Source of the DNA: Octopus vulgaris | Lineage: Eukaryota | NCBI GenBank assembly: GCA_951406725.2 | Contig: OX597817.1 | Coordinates: forward strand, 151,838,001 to 151,902,000 | Direction: 5' to 3' | DNA: 64,000 nt | Shown: positions 2,892 through 62,626 of the stretch, one piece after another | How positions within the stretch are numbered: position 1 is the stretch's first letter | Layout of the letters: each line of letters starts with the position of its first letter | Notes under the pieces: generated by a model | The model's database searches: none | Seen by the model: the letters and a program-made list of their open reading frames with translations, nothing else | What the model was told of the DNA's origin: nothing | Made by a program: the position numbers and the translations under genes

Positions 2892-4379
2892 ATACAAACA
2901 GCAAAGGAATTCAGCATTGGCAAACCAGCAAGTGATTCATGATTTGGACTGTTACACTCACAGAAACAACAGATTCATATTCTTTGGTGATCAACAAGTC
3001 AACGTACAAACCACAAATGGAAGTCACTTTTCTGCCAGCGGTCATGACTTCCTACTGGCTAATTTGTTGAAACATGTCATTAAGATATCTTAACTGTATG
3101 TATACCATGTGTGATGGTCAGTAGTTGAACAGGAAAACTGAGTATCTACCTACGTCATTTTGGAGTGCCTGTGCAACATATACCAGATTTAGAACACCAT
3201 CCAAATATTCCCATTATAAGTATGCTGGAAAAGTTACACCAGATGTGTGATACCCACCATAAAAGAGGCCTGGTAATAAATGGATGTTTTGGCAGAGAAC
3301 ACATTTATCATTGTTCCAGCAGATTTATACAACAAATGGCAAGTGTTGTTGTTGTTAAGCAACAATACGGGTAAGGGTGATTAGGTGATGGTCTAGGGGC
3401 TTAGGGACGGGAGACCCTAACTTTGGAAAAAAAAGAAACTTTGGTCGTCTTGTTGTAGTCGATAATTATATCATCCATCAAACTTTGAAAAGCACTTATG
3501 GCATTGGAGATCTCCATTGAACAGCAATGGCAAGTGTTGTGGCTCGAGAGAAAGCTAAGACACACATGTTTAATTGTAGTCAAGTCTTGTAGTTGTTTAG
3601 AATAGCTAGGTATTGTGTAATCTATGAGGGGTTTCTATCTTTCAGGACCGAGTTGAAAAATAAATTTCTTCTATTAGGATGCGGACAGTCCTTCAGAAAG
3701 CAAGTGACTTAAGATTGTGGAGCCAATCAATAGATAAGAACTGATATATGTCATCATATATCTTCTTTATTGTCCCGGCTGTGGGTACAGACTGACGGGA
3801 AGCTCTTTATACAGTGTGTCTGTATCTTTGTTTACAGCTGGATGCCCTTCCTAACGCCAACCAGTGACTAGTGTTTGCTGCTCAATAATACCTATTTCTT
3901 TATTACCCACAAGGGGCTAAACACAGAGGGGACAAATGTATTAAGTCGATTATATCAACCCCAGTGTGTAACTGGTACTTATTTAATCGACCCCGAAAGG
4001 ATGAAAGGCAAAGTCGACCTCGGCAAATTTGAACTCAGAACATAGCAGACGAAATACCTTAGCATTTCGCCCCAAGCCGTTTCTGCCAGCTCGCCGCCTT
4101 ACAGCTCATAATTTGGCAGTTCTTGATGTTGGTTTAATCAGTCAGTTACAGATACCTTCTCTAGATCAATGATGTAGAGTTTCTGTGTCAGATACTGAGG
4201 GTTATTTCTTAGAAACATCATCAAACATTTAGTGTAAACTTTTGATGTGAACCACAAAAGAGGAGGCCTTATCACATGGAGTATTTCCTTTAAAACATCA
4301 CTTCATCATTTTTCCAAGTAATGATTTGTGTTAAATAGAATTAACTGATTCATATGCTCTTCAATAGGTTTAACGATAA

Positions 4380-4700: not shown

Positions 4701-4915
4701 TACTACTGCTTGTACTCATCATCATCATCATCATCATCGTTTAACATCCGTTCTCCATGCTAGCATGGGTTGGAGGGTTCGACCGGTGATCTGGGAAGCT
4801 AGAAGGCTGCACCAGGCTCCAGTCTTATCTTGCAATGTTTCTACAGCTGGATGCCCTTCCTAACGCCAACCACTCCGTGAGTGTAGTGGGTGCTTTTTAC
4901 GTGCTCAATAATACC

Positions 4916-5137
4916 TATTTCTTTATTACCCACAAGGGGCTAAACACAGAGGGGACAAATGTATTAAGTCGATTATATCAACCCCAGTGCGTAACTGGTA
5001 CTTATTTAATCAACCCCGAAAGGACGAAAGGCAAAGTCGACCTCGGCGAAACTTGAACTCAGAACATAGCGGCAGATGAAATACCTCTAGGCATTTCGCC
5101 CGGCAAGCTAACGTTTCTGCCAGCTCGCCGCCTTACA
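4916..5137 (-). mobile_element. SINE-B, LINE-tailed variant
   Basis: tRNA-like head and GAGTTCAA B-box-like motif, gtcgactttgccttt core; 13-bp TSD gctcaataatacc (4903-4915, 5138-5150). Confidence 0.85.
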
Positions 5138-33075: not shown

Positions 33076-33189
33076 CAGACATCTCAAAAGTAAACAGGCA
33101 TCATTATTTTTGATGCATACTTGAAGCTCTATGTAGTGTTTGCACAGATAAAACAGTATCACATTGGGTGTCTATTTACTCTTAAGATA

Positions 33190-35024
33190 TATGTGTATAT
33201 AATTATGTGTGTTTATATATGTATATATATGCATGTGTGTGTATGTATATATATATATATGGGTGTGTGCATATGTATATATGTATGTAGATGTATATAT
33301 ATATATATGCATGTGTGTATGTATTTATGTATGTATCTATGTATTTATATGTATGTATATATGTATGTATATATATATATCTATATGTATGTATATATAT
33401 ATATCTATATGTATATATGTATCTATATGTATGTATATATATGTATCTATATGTATATATATATATATGTATATATGTATCTATCTATATATATGTATCT
33501 ATCTATATATATGTATCTATCTATATATATGTATCTATATATATATGTATCTATATATATATGTATGTATATATATCTATATGTATCTATATATATATGT
33601 ATGTATATATGTATCTATATATGTATATGTATCTATATATGTATGTATATATGTATCTATATATATGTATGTATATATGTATCTATATATATATATGTAT
33701 GTATATATGTATCTATATATATATATGTATGTATATATGTATCTATATATATATGTATGTATATATGTATCTATATATGTATGTATGTATATATGTATCT
33801 ATATATATATGTATGTATGAATATATGTATCTATATATGTATGTATGTATATATGTATCTATATATGTATGTATGTATATATGTATCTATATGTGTATGT
33901 ATGTATATATGTATCTATATATATATGTATGTATGTATATATGTATCTATATATATATGTATGTATGTATATATATATATCTATATATATATGTATGTAT
34001 GTATATATATATCTATATATGTATGTATGTATGTATATATATATATGTATGTATGTATGTATATATCTATATATATATGTATGTATGTGTATATATATCT
34101 ATATATATATGTATGTATGTGTATATATATCTATATATATATGTATGTATGTATATATATATCTATATATATATGTATGTATGTATATATATATCTATAT
34201 ATATATGTATATATGTATATATGTATCTATATATATATGTATGTATGTATATATGTATCTATCTATCTATCTATATATATATATATGTATGTATGTATAT
34301 ATGTATCTATCTATCTATCTATATATATATATGTATGTATGTATATATGTATCTATATATATGTATGTATATATGTATCTATCTATATATATATATATAT
34401 GTATGTATATATGTATGTATATATGTATGTATCTATATATATATATATATGTATGTATATATGTATGTATCTATCTATCTATATATATATATGTATGTAT
34501 ATATGTATGTATATATGTATCTATCTATATATATATATGTATATATGTATGTATATATGTATCTATCTATATATATATGATGTATATATGTATATATGTA
34601 TGTATATATGTATCTATCTATATATATATGATGTATATATGTATCTATCTATATATATATATGTATGTATATATGTATGTGTATATATGTATGTATATAT
34701 ATGTATCTATATATATGTATCTATATATATGTATATATGTATCTATATATATGTATATATGTATCTATATATATGTATGTATGTATCTATATATATGTAT
34801 GTATGTATCTATATATGTATGTATATATGTATATATGTATATATGTATATATATGTGTATATATGTGTGTATATATATGTGTATATATGTATATATATAT
34901 ATATGTATGTATATGTATATGTATATATATGTATATATATATATGTATATATATGTATATATATATGTGTATATATATGTATATGTATATATATGTATAT
35001 GTATATATATGTATATGTATATAT

Positions 35025-35056
<32 letters not shown>

Positions 35057-35071
35057 GTATATATATATGTG

Positions 35072-35109
<38 letters not shown>

Positions 35110-35115
35110 TATGTG

Positions 35116-35152
<37 letters not shown>

Positions 35153-35157
35153 GTGTG

Positions 35158-35208
<51 letters not shown>

Positions 35209-35620
35209 GTATGTGTATATATATGTATGTGTATATATATATATATGTATATATATGTATGTATATATATATGTATGTATGTATGTATGTATATGTATGT
35301 ATGTATGTATATGTATGTATGTATGTATATATATGTATGTATGTATACATGTATGTATATATGTATGTATGTATGTATATATGTATGTATATATATCTGT
35401 ATGTATATCTATATGTATATGTATGTATATCTATATGTATATGTATGTATATATATCTATATGTATATATATGTATGTACATATATATATGTATGTATAT
35501 ATATCTATATGTATATATATGTATGTATATATATCTATATGTATATGTATGTATGTATATATATCTATATGTATATATATGTATGTTCATATATATATAT
35601 ATGTATGTACATATATCTGT

Positions 35621-35655
<35 letters not shown>
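33190..35655. repeat. 2.45-kb complex microsatellite (TA/TATG/TATC)
   Basis: Continuous mosaic of TA, TATG and TATC units; source of the spurious 300-833 aa ORFs. Confidence 0.95.
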
Positions 35656-35657
<2 letters not shown>

Positions 35658-36314
35658 AATATACTCTGTAATTCTTTTTGCTCAAACATGATTTCATTGT
35701 TGTTTTTGTTTAATAAAACTACTATTCACTAATCAATGTTGTTTTCTCTTATTGATCTCCATCAATCATCCTGTATAAACATAGAACGGCAGCACCCTCG
35801 TTAGAAATGTTTTGTGATTTTTTTTTCCTAACATTCTTTTTATACTTCTAATTTGTTTCTTGTTGTTTTTTTTTGTGTGTGTGTGTTCTCTTGTAAACAA
35901 CATTCCCAAATTCCTAAGCATCTTATTTAAATGATTTCAAAACTGATGGAGAGATTTGAAAGTAATAACAATAATAATAACTGAATCAACAACATACTGT
36001 CCAAATTTATATTGTTGAATTCTTTGATTGTATCTTAACACTCTGACACCCTCATATATATTCTGTTTTGGAATGAACCATTTGTATGCAGCCGTTTGGA
36101 CGCTGACAAGCGAGCACGACTGATTGGACATTCAGCTTGTTTCAGTGACAGTACTCTTTGGAGTTGGGAGTAAACACATCCCACACAGCTGCGTGTACAC
36201 ACAATGCATGTACGTGCAATGATTATACACACACGACGTGTGTGCATGCACAAGTGCAGAAATGTAAATGCAGAAAGATTGAGAGAGAGAGAGAGAGAGA
36301 GAGATTATTAAAAT

Positions 36315-54181: not shown

Positions 54182-55009
54182 GGATCTTTTCCTTTTGAAC
54201 GGAACTTTATAACATAATTTCTAGTTAACTAAAAAGTTTTAAACTTCGTATACTGGTAGAATGTGTGTATAAAACATCATTTTTTCTTGCCTTTATTGAG
54301 AAAATTCTATAGGTTGTAAGATATTTCGTCTTTAATTTCGAGCATTTCGGCAATTTTAACCAATCAAATACGTCCATTTAGGTAAATAACATTCTGTGCA
54401 TAATGAATATGTCCCTCCTTTAAGAAACAGATTGGGTTTATTTACATTTGTGAAGAAAAAAAGATACCCTTCCCCAACCCCTAACTAATCCTAACCCTAA
54501 ATCTAAAATAGATTGAAATGCAATAGATCGCTACTAGGGCCATAATTATGGGTGACATTTTCATTTGACACCGCTAGAAAAAAAATCCCATTTTCAGTAG
54601 CGGTGTCGTATGAAATTGTCACCCATAATTATAACCCTAGTATCGATCTATTGCATTTCAATCTATTTTAGACTTAGGGTGAGAGTTAGGGTTAGTTAGG
54701 GTTAGGGTTAGGGGTGGGGGAAGGGTATCTTTTTTCTTCTCAAATGTAAATAAACCCAATCTGTTTCTTAAAGGAGGGACATATTCATTGTGCACGGAAT
54801 GTTGTTTACCTAAATGGAGGTAATCGATTGGTTAAAATTGCCGAAATGCTCGAAATTAAAGACGAAATATGTTACAACATATAGAATTTTCTCAATAAAA
54901 CCAAGAAAAAATGATGTTTTATAAACACATTCTACCAGTATACGAAGTTTAAAAGTGTTTAGTTAAATAGAAATTGTGTTAAAAAGTGCCGTTCAAAAGG
55001 AAAAGATCC
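54182..55009. mobile_element. Fold-back element: ~400-bp inverted arms of the 52400 MITE family, inserted in a SINE-B
   Basis: Termini ggatcttttccttttgaacgg / ccgttcaaaaggaaaagatcc; arms complementary up to gacaccgcta...tagcggtgtc near 54570-54610. Confidence 0.85.
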
Positions 55010-55585
55010 CTTCCTCAAGGGATGAAAAGTAAAGTGGACCTCGGTGAAATTTAAACTTAAAAATGTACAGACGTACGAAATGTCGCTACGCTCTGTTAGC
55101 CGGCGTGCTAACAATTCAATCAGTTAGCCTGACCATCAGTAACACATCTCGCAGAGATTCAGAGGGAGAAAGGGACTGGCAGGCAGTCATGGAGGGAAGG
55201 GGCTATCTGTAAGCAAGCAGAAAACTGTCAATAAACTATACCTTAATAAATCTCTTTAAAGTTTTTCTGAGTCTTACATCACAATGTACAACGAAGTCAA
55301 ACAGATGAGAACCTTTGATCGAAAGCGTGTTCTTTTCTTTTAATTATTGTAGAGTGTAAGGCGGCGAGCTGGCAGAAACGTTAGCACGCCGGGCGAAATG
55401 CGTAGCCGTATTTCGTCTGCCGCACATGTGTTCGTGAAGTAAGAATTGCTGTTTCGTGGTGTTAATATTGTTAACAACTGTTGTTTCTTGTTAAACTGTT
55501 GAATAACTTAACTGTTGGAGTTTTCAATTGAAAACACTTAGTGCTTGTGGTAGCACGCGTTGTTCATTCCCCTTTGGGGGGAAGA

Positions 55586-56919
55586 ATGTCGTCTAGCATG
55601 GAGCCTACCGTTGGAGCAGAAATACTTGTTTCTCCTGTTGAGAGGAGGAAATACATGTCCGGCGAGGAGCCAACTACAGACAAGGAAATAGGGGTTTCCC
55701 CGCTACAAGAAGGAATAGCAGAGAGGATAATATATTTGATATTTTTGGAGATGTGTCTGAGAGCTCGTCAGAACTTTCACCAGAAGAGTTTCCGACTTTG
55801 CCAGAGAACAAAGGCATTGTGTCGAAGAGAATAATTGATGTGCCTAGCATCCAGATAGAACCAAAAAATGGAAAAAAAAGTTTTGCGTTGGCTGTTGGGG
55901 GTGGAACCCAGATACTGTCGACGAATAAAAGCGAAATTATGAAATACAGCAAAATAATGGAAATAACTGACAACGGTGTGGAAATTGAACCTCCGCAAAA
56001 GTTATTACAGGAAGAAAAGCAAAAAACAATAATTTTCAAAACATATTGTCTACAAAAAAAGAAAAATTGAAAGAATGTCAGAAGAGAAAATAGAAAAGTG
56101 CTTAAAGCCAATATTGGGCGACGTAGTATTTCTGAGAAGAGGAAAAAATTCGGAACGGTGGAAGTAAGGTTCACCAATAAAGAAATAGCACACAAGAACT
56201 CAGTTGAAACGTTGAAAACGAACGACGTGGAGTTAATCTCCTATTATATGGGGATGAGGACGTCGCGAATAAAAATTACAAGGGTCCCGCCAGAGGTCGA
56301 ACCTATGTGGTTGTTGGCGGCAGTCCTAATCAAAGAGGTAGAAAAAATTACTCTCCTCCAGGCTACCGCTACGGAAAACCCACGCTGGGATGGTCAAACA
56401 ATTAATCTTCTCATTCAAGCGGACCTTAAAATAATTCAAACAATTCCTGAGACAATTGAGGTAGGGGAGGAGAACCTCGTGGTGTTTGTTGAGGGCCGAA
56501 AACCTCGATGTTTTTTATGTGGTCAATTAGGCCACATTCGAAGGAACTGCAAGGAAAATGAAGAAGAGGAGGAAGAGGAGAAAAAAGACAAAGAGGAAGA
56601 AGATAAAGAAGAAACAGATGAGAAAAAAACAACAAACAAAAGAAAAATACAACCAGCAACCCAACCGAGAGCGGCGACTACTACAGAACAACGACCAAAA
56701 AAGACTGCCAGAAGAGAAAAAGAAGAAAAAGGCATAATAGCCGTATACACTAAAGATACTGAGCTCATGAGAGACATTCAACTCATAAAGACTGTAAAAA
56801 AATTTGATAACCTTTCAGAGGAATTTATCAATTACGACATATATGAAGTCTCAAATAAGACTTATAGAATTCTACAAAATAAGTACAGAAAGACTATCTT
56901 CATTGAGATTAGATTTTAA
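55586..56919 (+). pseudogene. LINE ORF1 (gag-like nucleic-acid-binding protein), two apparent frameshifts
   Basis: Three overlapping frames (55541, 55753, 56098) join; CCHC knuckle CFLCGQLGHIRRNC followed by acidic/basic tract; shifts near 55730 and at the A-run near 56060. Confidence 0.8.
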
Positions 56920-57123
56920 CAAGTCGATATTTCATGGATTACCAGCTCCGATCCCGCGAGAAAAGGAAAAGGTGGAGATTCCCCCTCCACCTGATAATTT
57001 TGTGTCGGTGGTGAGACGGGATTTTGACAAATCTATTTCCCAAGACCGTCCACCTCCGACCCTGGATCAAAAAAATGTGGAGGGTCCCCCTCCACCGGAC
57101 AATCCTAATTAAACAGGTAAGTG

Positions 57124-60100
57124 ATGGCTATTCACATTGGTTGTTTAAATGTTCATGGCCTGTTGTCAAGCTGGAAGCAAGGACGCTTTCTGAATGACAT
57201 CAGGTCGAGAAATTTGGATGTAATTGTTGCAACGGAAACCCGGGTGAAGGGGCCAAGAGATCTGCTCCCCCTCCTGAACGGCTACGAGAAATACGTTTCT
57301 CCGAGTCGGGCGGGAGGTGGGGGTGGGGTGTTGGTCCTACTAAAAAGAAACCGGGTAGCCGAGAAAAAGTTGGTTTTTTCTGACCCAGAAGGCAGGCTGG
57401 TCGTTCTCGACTTGACATTCAGTTGTGACAAGACAATCAGGCTGGTTGCTATTTACGCACCAAACATTATTGGCCCGCAAACTGAATATTTTCGTGGCCT
57501 AGGAAAGTTCCTAGCCACGTCGCATTCACTAGTAGTGTTAGGAGACTCTAATACAATATGTGCAGCACACACAGATTGTGTTGGCTCAAACTCGAACATG
57601 AACAGAAAATGTAACCCAGGCTTTCGGGATCTGCTAAGTCAATTTCAGCTAGCAGATCCATATAGGTTGGAGCACCCGAACACTCCACAGTGGACGTGGT
57701 CAAATAGTGACGGGTCTACCAGAACATATCTAGATAGGATTTTAATTAGAGAAAAAGATAAGTCCATAGTTGAGTGTCCACAGTTTTTTCTAGTCAGCTA
57801 CAGTGACCACAAGATGGTTACCTGTAAACTGACGGTAGATAAGTTGCATAGACAGGTATCTGGCTACTGGAAACTCAATACGTCCCTTTTGGCGATTGAG
57901 GAGTACAGAAAGCGGATCAAGATGTTAATACAGAGGGCATTAACAGGTACCATCATCAATAACAAATGGTGGTACGCCCTAAAAAGAGCCATCAAATATG
58001 AGTCTATTAGGTTTAGCATAAGTTTAGCTAAGAAGGGACGTAAAATAGGAGATGGTCTAGTTAAGGAACTAGAAGAAGCCTGGAGGACTGGTAATACAGA
58101 CCAAGCGAGGGTGAAAAGACTGGAGTTAAACCAGCATCTTGAAGCCCACCACATGGGAAGTATTACCAGAGCTAAGTTACGTGCAATGGGAAGTGAAGGA
58201 ATCAAAGCCGCTGGATGGGCCCGAGTGGTGGAAGCTCGGCAAGGAAATAGTTCCTCTATTCGGTCTTTGACGAATCAAAATGGTGTCTTGATAAACGAAC
58301 CCGAGAAAATGTGTGAGGTCTTTCGGGAGTACTTAGCCCAGCTGTTCGGGGGTGACGGCGGTCCTGGTGGTGGGAGCGCCCTCGAGGACTTTCTTACCGG
58401 GCTGCCGTGCCTCTGATGCGGAGTCTTGCGAAGGGCCAATCACACCTGAGGAGGTGATGGAGGCTTTGGCCGATTGTAAAGCGGGTAAGTCACCGGGACT
58501 TGATGGTCTTCCGTACGAGCTGTATAAATGTATGCCAGACTTGTTCGGGCAACTACTGACTGACGTGTACGCGAACTGGAAACAGAATGGGTTTATCCCC
58601 AGATCTGTGCGCCGGGGAGTAGTGACGTTGGTCAGAAAGGACCCGGACAAGGGGGACGTTCTAGAGAATTTCAGGCCCATCACTCTGTTAAACGCAGAAG
58701 TGATGATTTTGGCCAAGGTTCTAGCAAAAAAGTTGGCGCGTGTCGCGAATGGTATAGTCGGGGAGGCACAGACATGTGCCATCCCAGGCAGAACCATTCA
58801 GGATACCCTCCATCTTATTCGCTATACCATAGAGAGGTTTGGTAATAAATCTGGCAAAGGTGGGGCATTGGTGCATTTGGACCAGTCTAAAGCTTTTGAT
58901 AGGGTTGACCATCGATACCTAGCGACTGTACTTGCGCGGTTTGGCCTGGGCCTTGGCTTCCTCATGTGGTTTATCGCTTTGTACCACAACATTGACTCGA
59001 TAGTTCGGGTGAACGGTTTCCTTTCGAAGCCGTTCTGCATCAGACGCTCGGTTCGTCAAGGATGTCCGCTTTCACCACTTTTGTATGTGATGGCTCTCGA
59101 GCCATTACTGCAAAGGTTGAGTGGCATCCCGAGAGAACCAGGACTAGAGGAGTTTGTTACGGCTTTCGCGGATGATATCACTATCAGTGTAACCACAGTG
59201 GCACGCCTACGTGAAGTAGGTAAGACTATTGAGGCTTACGAGGAGGTAGCAGGAGCAAAGATTAACCGGGAAAAGTCGGTCGGCTTGCAGTTCGGCACCT
59301 GGGTTGGCAAGTCGATGCCTTCAGACAGTGTTGTTAGGCGCTGGACGGAGGGACCGGTTAAGTTGCTGGGAGTCTGGTTTGGACCAGGCCTCCAGATAGA
59401 GAAGAACTGGACGGAGGTATTGAGCAGGGTGGCTGCAGTAGTCAAGACCTGGTCTTGGCGGTGGCTATCCCTGAAAGGGAGGGCGGAAGTGGCCAATGTG
59501 TTTATCGCATCGGTCATTACCTACCGCCTGACCGTCGTGCCCTGTCCGGATTTGTGGTTGATCAGGTTGGTGAGACAGCTCTTTCGCTTTTTGTGGAAGG
59601 GCAGGTCGCCACTTGTGAAACGCTCTGTCTGCTGTCAAAAGCCTTTAAATGGAGGTTTAGGGATGCCTTGGTTAATGATGCGCAGACATGCGTTGAGGTT
59701 GAGGCACCTCTGGATTCTCCTGGATAGTGAACGGGTGTGGTCTCCGCTAGCCAGACAAATGTTCCCTGAGTTCAAGAGTTTTTGCGAACAGGAAGCCTGG
59801 TGTTCTCGTAGACCGTGGTCGAGTGAGTGGCATAAAGAGTGCCGTAAGGCCCTCTTGCTGTTCCGGCGCTCGGGCAACGCCAGCGGTGGGGGTTCCACAC
59901 GGATTTTATATAGTGGGTTGGTAGAGTCTGAATGCGACGATGGCCTGGGGTCGACTCTAGGTCTCGGATTTATTCAACTGGACAGCTTGTTTCATCGTAC
60001 ATTCGGGTTGAGAACGTTGGACAACTTCCAAAAGTCCTTAACCTGGCAATGCTACAGAGGTGCCTTGCCCGTTTGGGATAAGCTCGCAAGACATGGTAAA

Positions 60101-60518
60101 CGTCAGTCGCCAACCTGTCCAAGATGCGGGGGGGGACAGGGAAACCGTCCCTCACGCTATTGTTCAGTGTCCGGAGATAACTGAAATGTGGGCTTATGCT
60201 GAACATCTGTTGTCCGGCGAAGGAAGAGTACGGCTGTTGACTGAGTCAATTATAAAAATTGACCCACCGGGAGTTCTAACGAACGAAGGTAAGAATTGTT
60301 TTCTCACGGTTGTAGCAATAGCAAAAGAGGCTGTACGGAAGACTAGGATAAAAGGAATTAAGACAGGCAACTTTATCTCTGGTGACAATTTACGATCCTT
60401 TTTTTCTTTTCATTTGAAAAGGAAACTGTGGCTGGAGAAGAGGTGTCTGTCAGAGTGTACCTTCCAAAAGAGATGGAAGTATGTTGCACGAGTGTTGTGC
60501 GTGCAAGGAACCGTGTGA
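57124..60518 (+). pseudogene. LINE ORF2: APE endonuclease + reverse transcriptase + C-terminal zinc finger, two frameshifts
   Basis: APE motifs (LNVHGL, ATET, IYAPN, GDSN, LDRI, SDHK), WKLNTSLL, KSPGLDGLPYELY, FRPITLLN, DQSKAFDRVDH, VRQGCPLSPLLY, FADD, LGGLGMP-like motif, CPRC..ETVPHAIVQC; shifts near 58410 and at the G-run near 60135. Confidence 0.92.
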
Positions 60519-60770
60519 ATAGACGAGGAAAAAAAAAAAAAAAAAAGGAAAAATAAAAAGGTATCAGCGGTAGATCGGGGCTTGTGGGATCGGAGCGTAA
60601 CTTGATCATCGCTTCATTTGTATTGTTTTTGTACTGTGTATTCCATTCGATTTTTATGTATTGTATTTTATTTTTGATGTCACATTTATATAAAATCATA
60701 TCGATTCACTGATCCCATCAGTTGTACTGTCCATATCTATGTTTGGCCCCCGGTGGGCAATAAAGAAATT

Positions 60771-61330
60771 CGTATTTCGTTTGCCGTTACGTTCTGAGTT
60801 CAAATTCCGCCGAGGTCGACTTTGCCTTTCATCCTTTCGGGGTCGATAAATTAAGTACCAGCTGCGTACTGGGGTCGATCTAATCGATTGGCCCCCTTAA
60901 TCCGTTTGTCTGTCCTTGTTTGTCCTCTCTGTGTTTAGCCCCTTGTGGGTAGTAAAGAAATAGGTATTTCGTCTGCCGCTACGTTCTCAGTTCAAATTCC
61001 GCCGAGGTCGACTTTGCCTTTCATCCTTTCGGGGTCGATTAAATAAGTACCAGTTACGCACTGGAGTCGATGTAGTCGGCTTAATCCGTTTGTCTGTCCT
61101 TGTTTGTCCCCTCTGTATTTGGCCCCTTGTGGGTAGTAAAGAAATAGATATTTCGTCTACCGCTACGTTCTGAGTTCAAATTCCGCCGAGGTCGACTTTG
61201 CCTTTCATCCTTTCGGAGTCGATTAAATAAGTACCAGTTATGCACTGGGGTCGATATAATCGACTTAATCCGTTTGTCTGTCCTTATTTGTCCCCTCTAT
61301 GTTTAGCCCCTTGTGGGCAATAAAGAAACA
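60771..61330 (+). repeat. Tandem array of three ~185-bp SINE-B units carrying the LINE-type 3' tail
   Basis: Units begin at (c/g)gtatttcgtctgccg-like sequence at 60771, about 60963 and about 61147; each ends cccttgtggg(t/c)a(g/a)taaagaaa. Confidence 0.9.
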
Positions 61331-62626
61331 AGAAACATTAGCACGCCGGGCGAAATGCTTAGCGGTGTTTCCTCTGTCTTTATGTTCTTAGTTCAAATTC
61401 CGTCGAGGTCGACTTTGCCTTTCATTCTTTCGGGGTCGATAATTGAAGTACCAGTTGCGTACTGGGGTCGATCTAATTGATTGCCCCCCCCCATACCCCT
61501 TGTGCCTAGAGTAGAAAATTAGAAAAGATTATTGTAGAGTGTGATACCCCACTGTTATAATGAATATACTGTAACAGAAAACTTTCACATGGAAAATTAG
61601 TTAGGTGGATTCCTTTGAGCATACAAAAACGTGCATTATTAAAAACGTCACGAGGAAAGAAAGTCCTCACAGTTAGGGTTTAATACTTTGCAAGTCGGGT
61701 CTTCCACTTTGCTAGCGTTCGGTTCGTGGTGATATGTATGTCTGTCAAGGTTATAAACGTCGGAGAGAAAATGAGTTCGTCGGCGGGTCATCAATTTTTA
61801 ATTACCAGAGAAGTCTCTGTAACCAGTTTAGTGGGTTTGGCCGTTAAATTGCAATTGATAGTATACAATATTAGATAGGTTGTGTGAAAAGGTGATAATC
61901 ACTGCAACAATATATATATTTTTATTACCCAGATCATTTGTATTTACATATGTGCAATAATTGTTTAGGTAAAGTAGTATACATGGGATGGTGAATGTGG
62001 TAGCTAAAATTTTTCACAGCATAAAATATTGTAATTTATATGAAAATCGTTCGTGGATATTATAGACAGAATAAGTAGAAAGAGTGAGAACACCTTATCA
62101 CAAACTATGTAGCACCTAAGGCTGTTCTGTTTAGGAATCAATATCCCAGCATTTTATAACATTTAGTCAAATCTTCTAGAACTTTCGATAGACCTATTTA
62201 GCAGGAAAATGCACAAAACATAACTCTCAGGTTTACTGATTATTTGGTTATGTACTAGCTGATCTGATTTATCAAACCACGTTCCCGTAGGTATTAATGT
62301 CCAGTAACGTAGCTGGGAGCGAGCAAAGGAGCTACGCATATGGCTCTGCTGTGTAGACATGTACAGGCTTATGCAAGGCCCCAGGGGTGGCAAACTCAAG
62401 AGCTGCCCGTGTGGCACACACATTAGCTACACTTTAGTTAATGCGCTTTATGTGGTAAAAGAGTTAAACCGTGGTCCTAAACTGGAGAATCTGAGATGAT
62501 GGTTCAAAATTTAGTAGAAACCTCGCTTTGAGAATTTAAGGTTAGGCTTTGGATTTAGGATTAAGGTTAGAATTAGGTTTAAGATTATGATTATAAAATT
62601 TAATAATCCTTTTAAAACTAACAATA

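Follow-up and report, generated by a model that had tools for sequence, protein, structure and literature searches.

Structure of the nested insertion

We analysed a stretch of 64,000 nucleotides from Octopus vulgaris (assembly GCA_951406725.2, contig OX597817.1, positions 151,838,001 to 151,902,000 of the forward strand), called here the window and numbered from its first letter. Between positions 55343 and 61542, a Tx1-like long interspersed element (LINE) sits inside a short interspersed element (SINE), and further SINE units follow it directly. Two statements about this system are well supported by comparison with other copies in the genome, namely that the LINE targets one site in the SINE and that a form of the SINE carrying a 3' tail like that of the LINE stacks upon itself on a large scale. 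The insertion is composed of the following features.

55343..55357, plus strand: left copy of the outer target site duplication (TSD), 15 bp, matching 61528-61542 exactly, with only these two occurrences in the window
55360..55406, plus strand: SINE head, tRNA-like, of the GCGTAGCC subfamily, from BLAST to other window copies
55407..55419, plus strand: left target block of the LINE, about 13 bp, from the paired junction table of 39 copies
55420..60770, plus strand: Tx1-like LINE, full length, 5.35 kb, frameshifted, with both ends common to the copies of the family
55586..56919, plus strand: remnant of open reading frame (ORF) 1, with a CCHC zinc knuckle (PF00098, E 4e-5)
57124..60518, plus strand: ORF2 remnant with apurinic/apyrimidinic endonuclease (APE; PF03372) and reverse transcriptase (RT; PF00078) domains and a C-terminal Cys/His motif
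60738..60769, plus strand: LINE 3' stem-loop and AATAAAGAAAT end, common to the SINE tail and to sister families
60771..60962, plus strand: unit 1, comprising the right target block and a SINE body, from alignment
60963..61146, plus strand: unit 2, headless tailed SINE unit beginning at the site of the LINE
61147..61329, plus strand: unit 3, headless tailed SINE unit beginning at the site of the LINE
61330..61527, plus strand: terminal SINE bearing the B tail, its point of entry being a second site located in the head
61528..61542, plus strand: right copy of the outer TSD, matching the left copy exactly

The sequence-only reading of this locus had described a 15-bp TSD around the whole region, which is exact, and a 16-bp TSD around the LINE; the latter duplication is present, but it matches at 15 of 16 positions here and measures about 13 bp across the family. 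That reading had also placed the junctions between the units at one common site. Those at 60962/60963 and 61146/61147 do fall on the site of the LINE, whereas that at 61329/61330 lies elsewhere, in the SINE head. The 3' boundary of the LINE was fixed by an off-target copy (L064). The LINE entered a SINE whose right half is unit 1; by alignment, this unit is a chimera in which a terminal-type (B-type) body is joined to a LINE-like tail. The three headless units ending in such a tail are 183-192 bp long, and unit 2 diverges by 8% from its neighbours.

The tailed form of the SINE, first regarded as a variant, is real but not rare, since five dispersed copies lie elsewhere in the window and exact tail matches in the genome number 79,433, against 4,617 for the B-tail motif, the two patterns differing in length. 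Two tailed copies in the window, at 4915-5132 and 3892-4098 (minus strand), have the same internal deletion and similar flanks and lie about 1 kb apart; this pair is a local duplication. The SINE is short, non-coding, high-copy and dispersed with variable TSDs, as are tRNA-derived SINEs (SINE2), and its 3' tail in common with a LINE is likewise a SINE2 feature. Words in its head look by eye like A and B boxes, and its core may be Meta/V-like. No tRNA parent was found by Rfam for one window copy or by ARAGORN for the window, and Rfam gave no small nuclear RNA (snRNA) match for the same copy.

Coding capacity and class of the LINE

Profile searches identified in ORF2 the APE (E 8e-11) and RT (E 4e-27) domains. 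Both ORFs are frameshifted in the window copy, ORF1 by indels relative to contigs of the family and ORF2 by frame breaks near 58414 and 60130, and another copy (L062) has an open ORF2 of 1134 amino acids with a visible CxxC..H..C motif. PF13966 scored on the nearest homologues and gave no score on the C-terminal piece of the window copy itself. The best PDB match to ORF2 is L1 ORF2p, far ahead of R2, the nearest named homologues are proteins of Argonauta and Sepia, and the rank-2 Atlas cluster, which is a lead only, bears the automatic name 'Transposon TX1 149 kDa protein' (0.92). The ORF1 zinc knuckle and the ORF2 C-terminal Cys/His motif are both those expected of the Tx1 clade, as is sequence-specific insertion into a multicopy target with a TSD. 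On the basis of its domain layout, its site specificity and the automatic cluster name, we call the LINE Tx1-like. Contigs from four sequencing runs, which we guess to be of RNA, cover the LINE and extend just 16-30 bases over its junctions, without bridging them.

The LINE occupies one site in the SINE

The proposal that the LINE is sequence-specific for a site in the SINE was confirmed by tabulating the flanks of its copies, about 95% of which are bound to the site. All 30 young 3' ends fetched among the 40 best 3'-end matches are followed by it, which represents 29 independent cases as two form a local duplicate; nine of the remaining 10 matches are also at the site, and the last one (L064) is a truncated copy inserted off target with an 11-bp TSD of its own. 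On the other side of the element, the SINE head and the site precede the 5' end of 43 of 43 distinct full-length young copies, whose outer flanks are unrelated, barring one duplicate. More diverged copies behave similarly. Their end could be read at 42 loci: at 37 it is followed by the site and the SINE body, at two by a site-like block continuing into the apparent 5' end of another LINE, and at one each it is off target, masked or interrupted. A count made blind to the flanks gave the same picture, with T[CG]GTATTT following 61 of 71 exact LINE-type tails, a variant of the site with SINE body following five and a site-like block one, while three were off target and one belonged to a SINE. At three loci (L132, L137 and L291), a LINE 3' end, a site-like block and the apparent 5' end of another LINE subfamily succeed one another, a possible case of LINE-on-LINE stacking at the site.

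The target block duplicated around the LINE measures about 13 bp (CGTATTTCGTCTG) in 39 paired copies, and the three bases after it vary with the 5' end of the LINE itself. Outside CpG positions, divergence amounts to 4.4% for the SINE heads and 5.2% for the SINE bodies against 0.8% for the LINE (38-39 copies). Because the two halves of the host are about 5-6 times more diverged than the element between them, the LINE entered pre-existing SINEs. The same contrast led us to reject the idea that head, LINE and body are mobilised as one composite element, in which case the targeting would be only apparent. Such an element could account for the single head subfamily found in all 43 young copies, and for the fact that a private variant is common to both target copies in only 2 of the 39 pairs, but hosts differ in tail type, and off-target copies (L064 and L289) end at the LINE tail with TSDs of their own; we hold it to be extremely improbable.

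The older subfamilies of the LINE occupy GGTATTT, frequently within hosts that carry the B tail. The young subfamily is found only at heads with C at the variable place (CCGTATTT heads; 43 of 43), and G-type heads are about as common as C-type ones, or commoner. The LINE subfamilies thus appear to follow a G-to-C change of the SINE's own at the site. That private variants are common to both target copies in just those two pairs suggests either a stringent sequence requirement or RNA-templated target bases. We also considered whether the uniform head variant could stem from RNA-borne conversion of the entire upstream head, and rejected this: the heads are as diverged as the bodies, and the head variant exists as a free subfamily (9,852 vs 8,148 exact 33-mers). 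A conversion restricted to the target block may have taken place.

Origin of the shared 3' tail

The likeness between the tail of the LINE and that of the SINE units, reported from the sequence, is significant. The tail of unit 3 is identical to that of the LINE at 30 of 33 positions (score 51) and that of unit 2 scores 38; shuffled alignments averaged 13 and none of 1000 reached either score, while the B tail of the terminal unit scores 17. LINE and SINE tails fold into the same terminal hairpin. Sister Tx1-like families, with 52-65% amino acid identity over a C-terminal piece, carry the same tail motif, and no SINE body was found after their LINE tails (0 of 19). Because the sister LINEs have the motif without the SINE beside them, it is lineage-wide and the SINE is likely the recipient. 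The idea that the SINE captured the tail of the LINE that parasitises it therefore stands in part: the tail likely derives from this LINE lineage, whether from the targeting family or from a sister.

Arguments exist for both kinds of donor. By score, the SINE tail is matched best by L108, L093 and L134, which represent older subfamilies of the targeting family, and almost as well by the sisters. Tail and site in identical register speak for the targeting family, as does a SINE copy (L287, G000:C2:188901000-188901550) in which the stem of the tail is exactly that of the targeting LINE, which points to a possible recent exchange between the two elements. For a sister as donor speaks a dispersed family whose TSDs span 15-18 bp and whose tail, like that of the SINE, is followed by an A.

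The sister families offered some observations of their own. In one of them (L113, G000:C29:19925200-19926900), an ATG some 20 bases downstream of the 3' end opens a reading frame whose translation looks like histone H2B; similar matches at C29:20057991 and 20121891 bring to three the near-equal matches on C29, which suggest insertion into, or duplication of, a histone cluster. Other sister families have an apparent target of their own, which is a shared unknown repeat for L114, L121 and L128, with a TSD of 18 bp in L273, a tandem satellite for L123 and a (CT)n run for L130.

Stacking of tailed SINEs on the site

Genome-wide, 31,237 tailed SINEs run directly from tail into site, against at most 162 matches for the B tail, the latter being loose and mostly chance AT-rich words. 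This count of tailed against untailed SINEs agrees with the prediction that stacking at the site is particular to the tailed form. Tails followed by GGTATTT and a base other than C number at most 6,626, and GGTATTT words in unselected DNA were SINE sites in 3 of 16 and 4 of 16 cases. In 25 dimers of a tailed unit and a B host, the tailed unit stands at 3.9% from consensus and the host at 6.4% (p 0.006), and variants specific to the host begin right at the junction. B copies that were entered are 6.4% diverged (n=28) vs 10.7% for free ones (n=9).

Full-length tailed SINEs sitting in the site with TSDs gave 99 matches, some in local runs. Among 20 of these matches inspected by eye, 18 were tailed copies in the SINE site, one was cut short and one was not in a SINE; the TSDs of nested full-length copies at the site measure 13-17 bp. 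Because full-length tailed SINEs nest there, retrotransposition into the site does occur. Full-length SINEs with a TSD starting in GGTATTT number 975; in their first 100 rows, read by eye, 7 SINE sites were exact and no more than about 20 were look-alikes. As this is near background, the excess at the site lies wholly in the headless junctions.

A second stacking site, located in the SINE head, accounts for 3,216 exact junctions genome-wide, and no LINE copy was seen at it in any locus read. We sampled 194 tails, a set enriched for site junctions in which the dispersed class was taken without selection on the start of the TSD. Dispersed insertions started with AGG in 29 of 50 cases for TAG-type tails vs 4 of 24 for CAA/CAG-type tails (p 0.001). 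Of nine junctions at the second site, eight came after CAA/CAG tails. Both the AGG start and the use of the second site track the type of tail, so that target choice goes with the 3' end that the SINE itself carries. We tentatively envisage a self-homing SINE. Through the capture of a site-specific Tx1 junction, it would have acquired the recognition stem of the LINE and, at the 3' end of its RNA, a target copy; the choice of target would then be inherited via the passenger RNA instead of being set by the endonuclease. If so, each entry site (that of the LINE and that in the head) would be a heritable address of a SINE subfamily, and a LINE lineage would be following sequence change in the SINE it parasitises.

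Growth of the tandem arrays

The median difference is 5.6% for adjacent units of an array (49 pairs from 28 arrays) and 10% for units of different arrays. Within long arrays the units are near-identical, have private variants in common and include chimeras. Because their units are homogeneous and some are chimeric, long arrays were likely extended by local duplication; that serial insertion builds the arrays, as had been proposed, is not supported, adjacent units being so much more alike than those of different arrays. Duplication is not the whole story either, since about 45% of neighbours, those of the window included, are as different as unrelated copies. The further expectation that stacking multiplies landing sites for the LINE was not supported by its copies: none of the 43 young full-length ones follows an array junction, and a single older one (L283) does. 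A polarity of array growth was also considered; a 5'-to-3' gradient seen in 3 of 6 arrays of at least 4 units was gone in a larger set, and the idea was dropped.

Tandem runs are formed by parts of the SINE as well. We observed a tail-only run (79 bp x4, L283:850-1560), head-plus-site units of about 83 and of 64-65 bp, and a B-tail run of 101 bp; the loci of such partial-SINE runs are L283, L072, G000:C10:17996024-17996501 and L219-L222.

These data bear on the possibility that stacking takes place at the DNA level only, with the LINE uninvolved, through microhomology-mediated duplication between terminal and internal GGTATT, unequal exchange, ectopic conversion between copies or a handful of composite dimer masters that spread. 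The homogeneous and chimeric arrays, the runs made of other sub-parts (79-bp tail, 64-65-bp head and 101-bp B-tail) and the excess of headless over nested junctions, about 300 to 1, would all agree with it. However, dimers with an older B host cannot come from local duplication, host-specific variants begin right at the junction, and it is evident from the nested, TSD-flanked copies that retrotransposition into the site occurs, so that we consider an explanation by DNA-level events alone very unlikely.

The opposite extreme is the strict closed loop put forward in the sequence-only reading, in which the endonuclease and RT of the site-specific LINE carry the tailed SINE and serial insertion builds the arrays. 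SINE junctions at the same site and register as the LINE are as it would have them, as are the older subfamilies of the targeting family among the best tail matches, the SINE copy with the exact LINE stem, the nested full-length copies with 13-17-bp TSDs, small duplications of the site block at two loci (L235 and L251) and the B-tailed SINE without stacking at the site. Against it, the tails on the site number about 31,000 out of no fewer than 79,000, a minority, as compared with about 95% of the LINE copies; the full-length SINEs with a GGTATTT TSD are no richer in SINE sites than background; in the loci read, the second stacking site is free of LINE copies; arrays show local homogeneity; and young LINEs are absent from array junctions. 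We judge the strict loop unlikely. What persists of it is the LINE targeting and the large-scale stacking, but guidance by the RNA end and duplication of DNA are needed too, and a role of the targeting family as mobiliser of the SINE is not supported, as most copies of the SINE are dispersed and its tail is fitted equally well by sister tails.

Proposed mechanism

Taking as its observed steps the specificity of the LINE, its insertion into existing SINEs, the shared tail and register, the younger age of the inserts and the homogeneity of the arrays, the explanation that we prefer, and that we consider fairly probable, is that the LINE is fixed on the SINE site, that the captured tail steers the SINE into the same site and that local duplication lengthens the arrays. 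The LINE endonuclease would read the SINE site, and the SINE would have captured, from a LINE junction, a Tx1-lineage tail plus the first bases of the target. Its transcript would not stop at the tail but continue for a few bases into the target copy downstream, and the end of this RNA would pair with nicked DNA, directing copies into the same site of older SINEs. The 5' end of the complementary DNA (cDNA) would then anneal to the homologous head of the host, leaving headless, seamless junctions; such homologous joining of cDNA to the host occurs for R2. The enzyme for most SINE copies would be a Tx1-lineage ORF2 of loose specificity, from the targeting family or not, and unequal exchange after the seeding of dimers would extend the arrays.

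Several points weigh against this explanation. Read-through of the SINE transcript is hypothetical, the tail stem shows little covariation, with 3 consensus pairs of which one has two-sided changes, and the nested SINEs that retain a head, 99 in number, stand against about 31,000 headless junctions, or about 1:300. The seamless route is deduced from its products and could be a DNA-level conversion, nicking by the LINE endonuclease would explain the ten-fold-scale excess at the site just as well, and the approximately 45% of adjacent units as unlike as unrelated copies do not follow from local duplication. Finally, the genome counts are of exact patterns of unequal length, and the sampled loci were picked by LINE or motif searches, partly from the start of contig 1.

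Relation to known systems

The closest known system is that of crocodilian SINEU-3 and Tx1-Mar, which, according to the available part of Kojima 2015 (PMC4494074), share a target, the DNA transposon Mariner-N4_AMi. As in octopus, a Tx1 group and a SINE share there an insertion target at which tandem SINEs accumulate. The two systems differ in that the crocodilian target is a third element whereas the octopus target is the SINE itself, and in that SINEU-3 has an snRNA-derived head and tandem copies that sandwich a TSD, while the octopus junctions are mostly headless and seamless and the SINE gave no snRNA match. Unlike SINEU-3, the octopus SINE also has a Tx1-lineage tail and mostly dispersed copies. 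In the same portion of that paper, Tx1L targets Tx1D, Keno targets U2, and Kibi and Koshi target microsatellites. They resemble the octopus element as APE-type Tx1-like LINEs with a strict multicopy target and fixed junctions, but no SINE is named there among their targets, and the octopus LINE subfamilies, in addition, appear to follow the G-to-C change of their SINE.

As regards arrays, parts of SINEs grow into arrays by unequal exchange in squamates and in jerboa Dip (PMC10702118), and in the blood clam (PMC11481361); the sections of these reports available to us mention neither a site-specific LINE nor a fixed entry site, whereas octopus has more than 31,000 junctions at one site. As regards tails, SINE families are described as swapping 3' tails to fit a partner LINE, with a conserved stem-loop (MetaSINE, PMC4824008); the partners given in the accessible text are L2, CR1 or unknown, with no Tx1, and, unlike in octopus, the SINE is not a target of its partner. 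L1-Tx1 families are listed in a 2026 annotation of octopus repeats, the available part of which contains neither 'target' nor 'nested' (PMC13282606). In the literature searched we found no Tx1 family targeting a SINE and no description of the octopus LINE family, although Repbase, Dfam, Kojima and Fujiwara 2004 or Ohshima and Okada 1994 may hold one.

The octopus system adds a SINE to the fixed targets of Tx1-like LINEs, with target and passenger being the same element. With more than 31,000 junctions, dated subfamilies and a copy with intact ORF2, it makes testable the respective roles of RNA-end pairing and of the endonuclease in the target choice of non-LTR elements, as well as the conversion of a SINE into tandem arrays. 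It would also offer to biochemistry an APE endonuclease with a putative preference of roughly 13-20 bp. In practice, automatic annotation will split the octopus SINE multimers into many false families.

Other features of the window

Elsewhere in the window, we noted a 159-bp tandem pair at 99% (2102-2424) and a TA/TG-rich microsatellite block of 2.5 kb (33187-35663). Just upstream of the nested insertion lies a short inverted-repeat element with TTAGGG-like runs (54500-54690), and the segment 54080-54360 is nearly duplicated at about 54790-55010.

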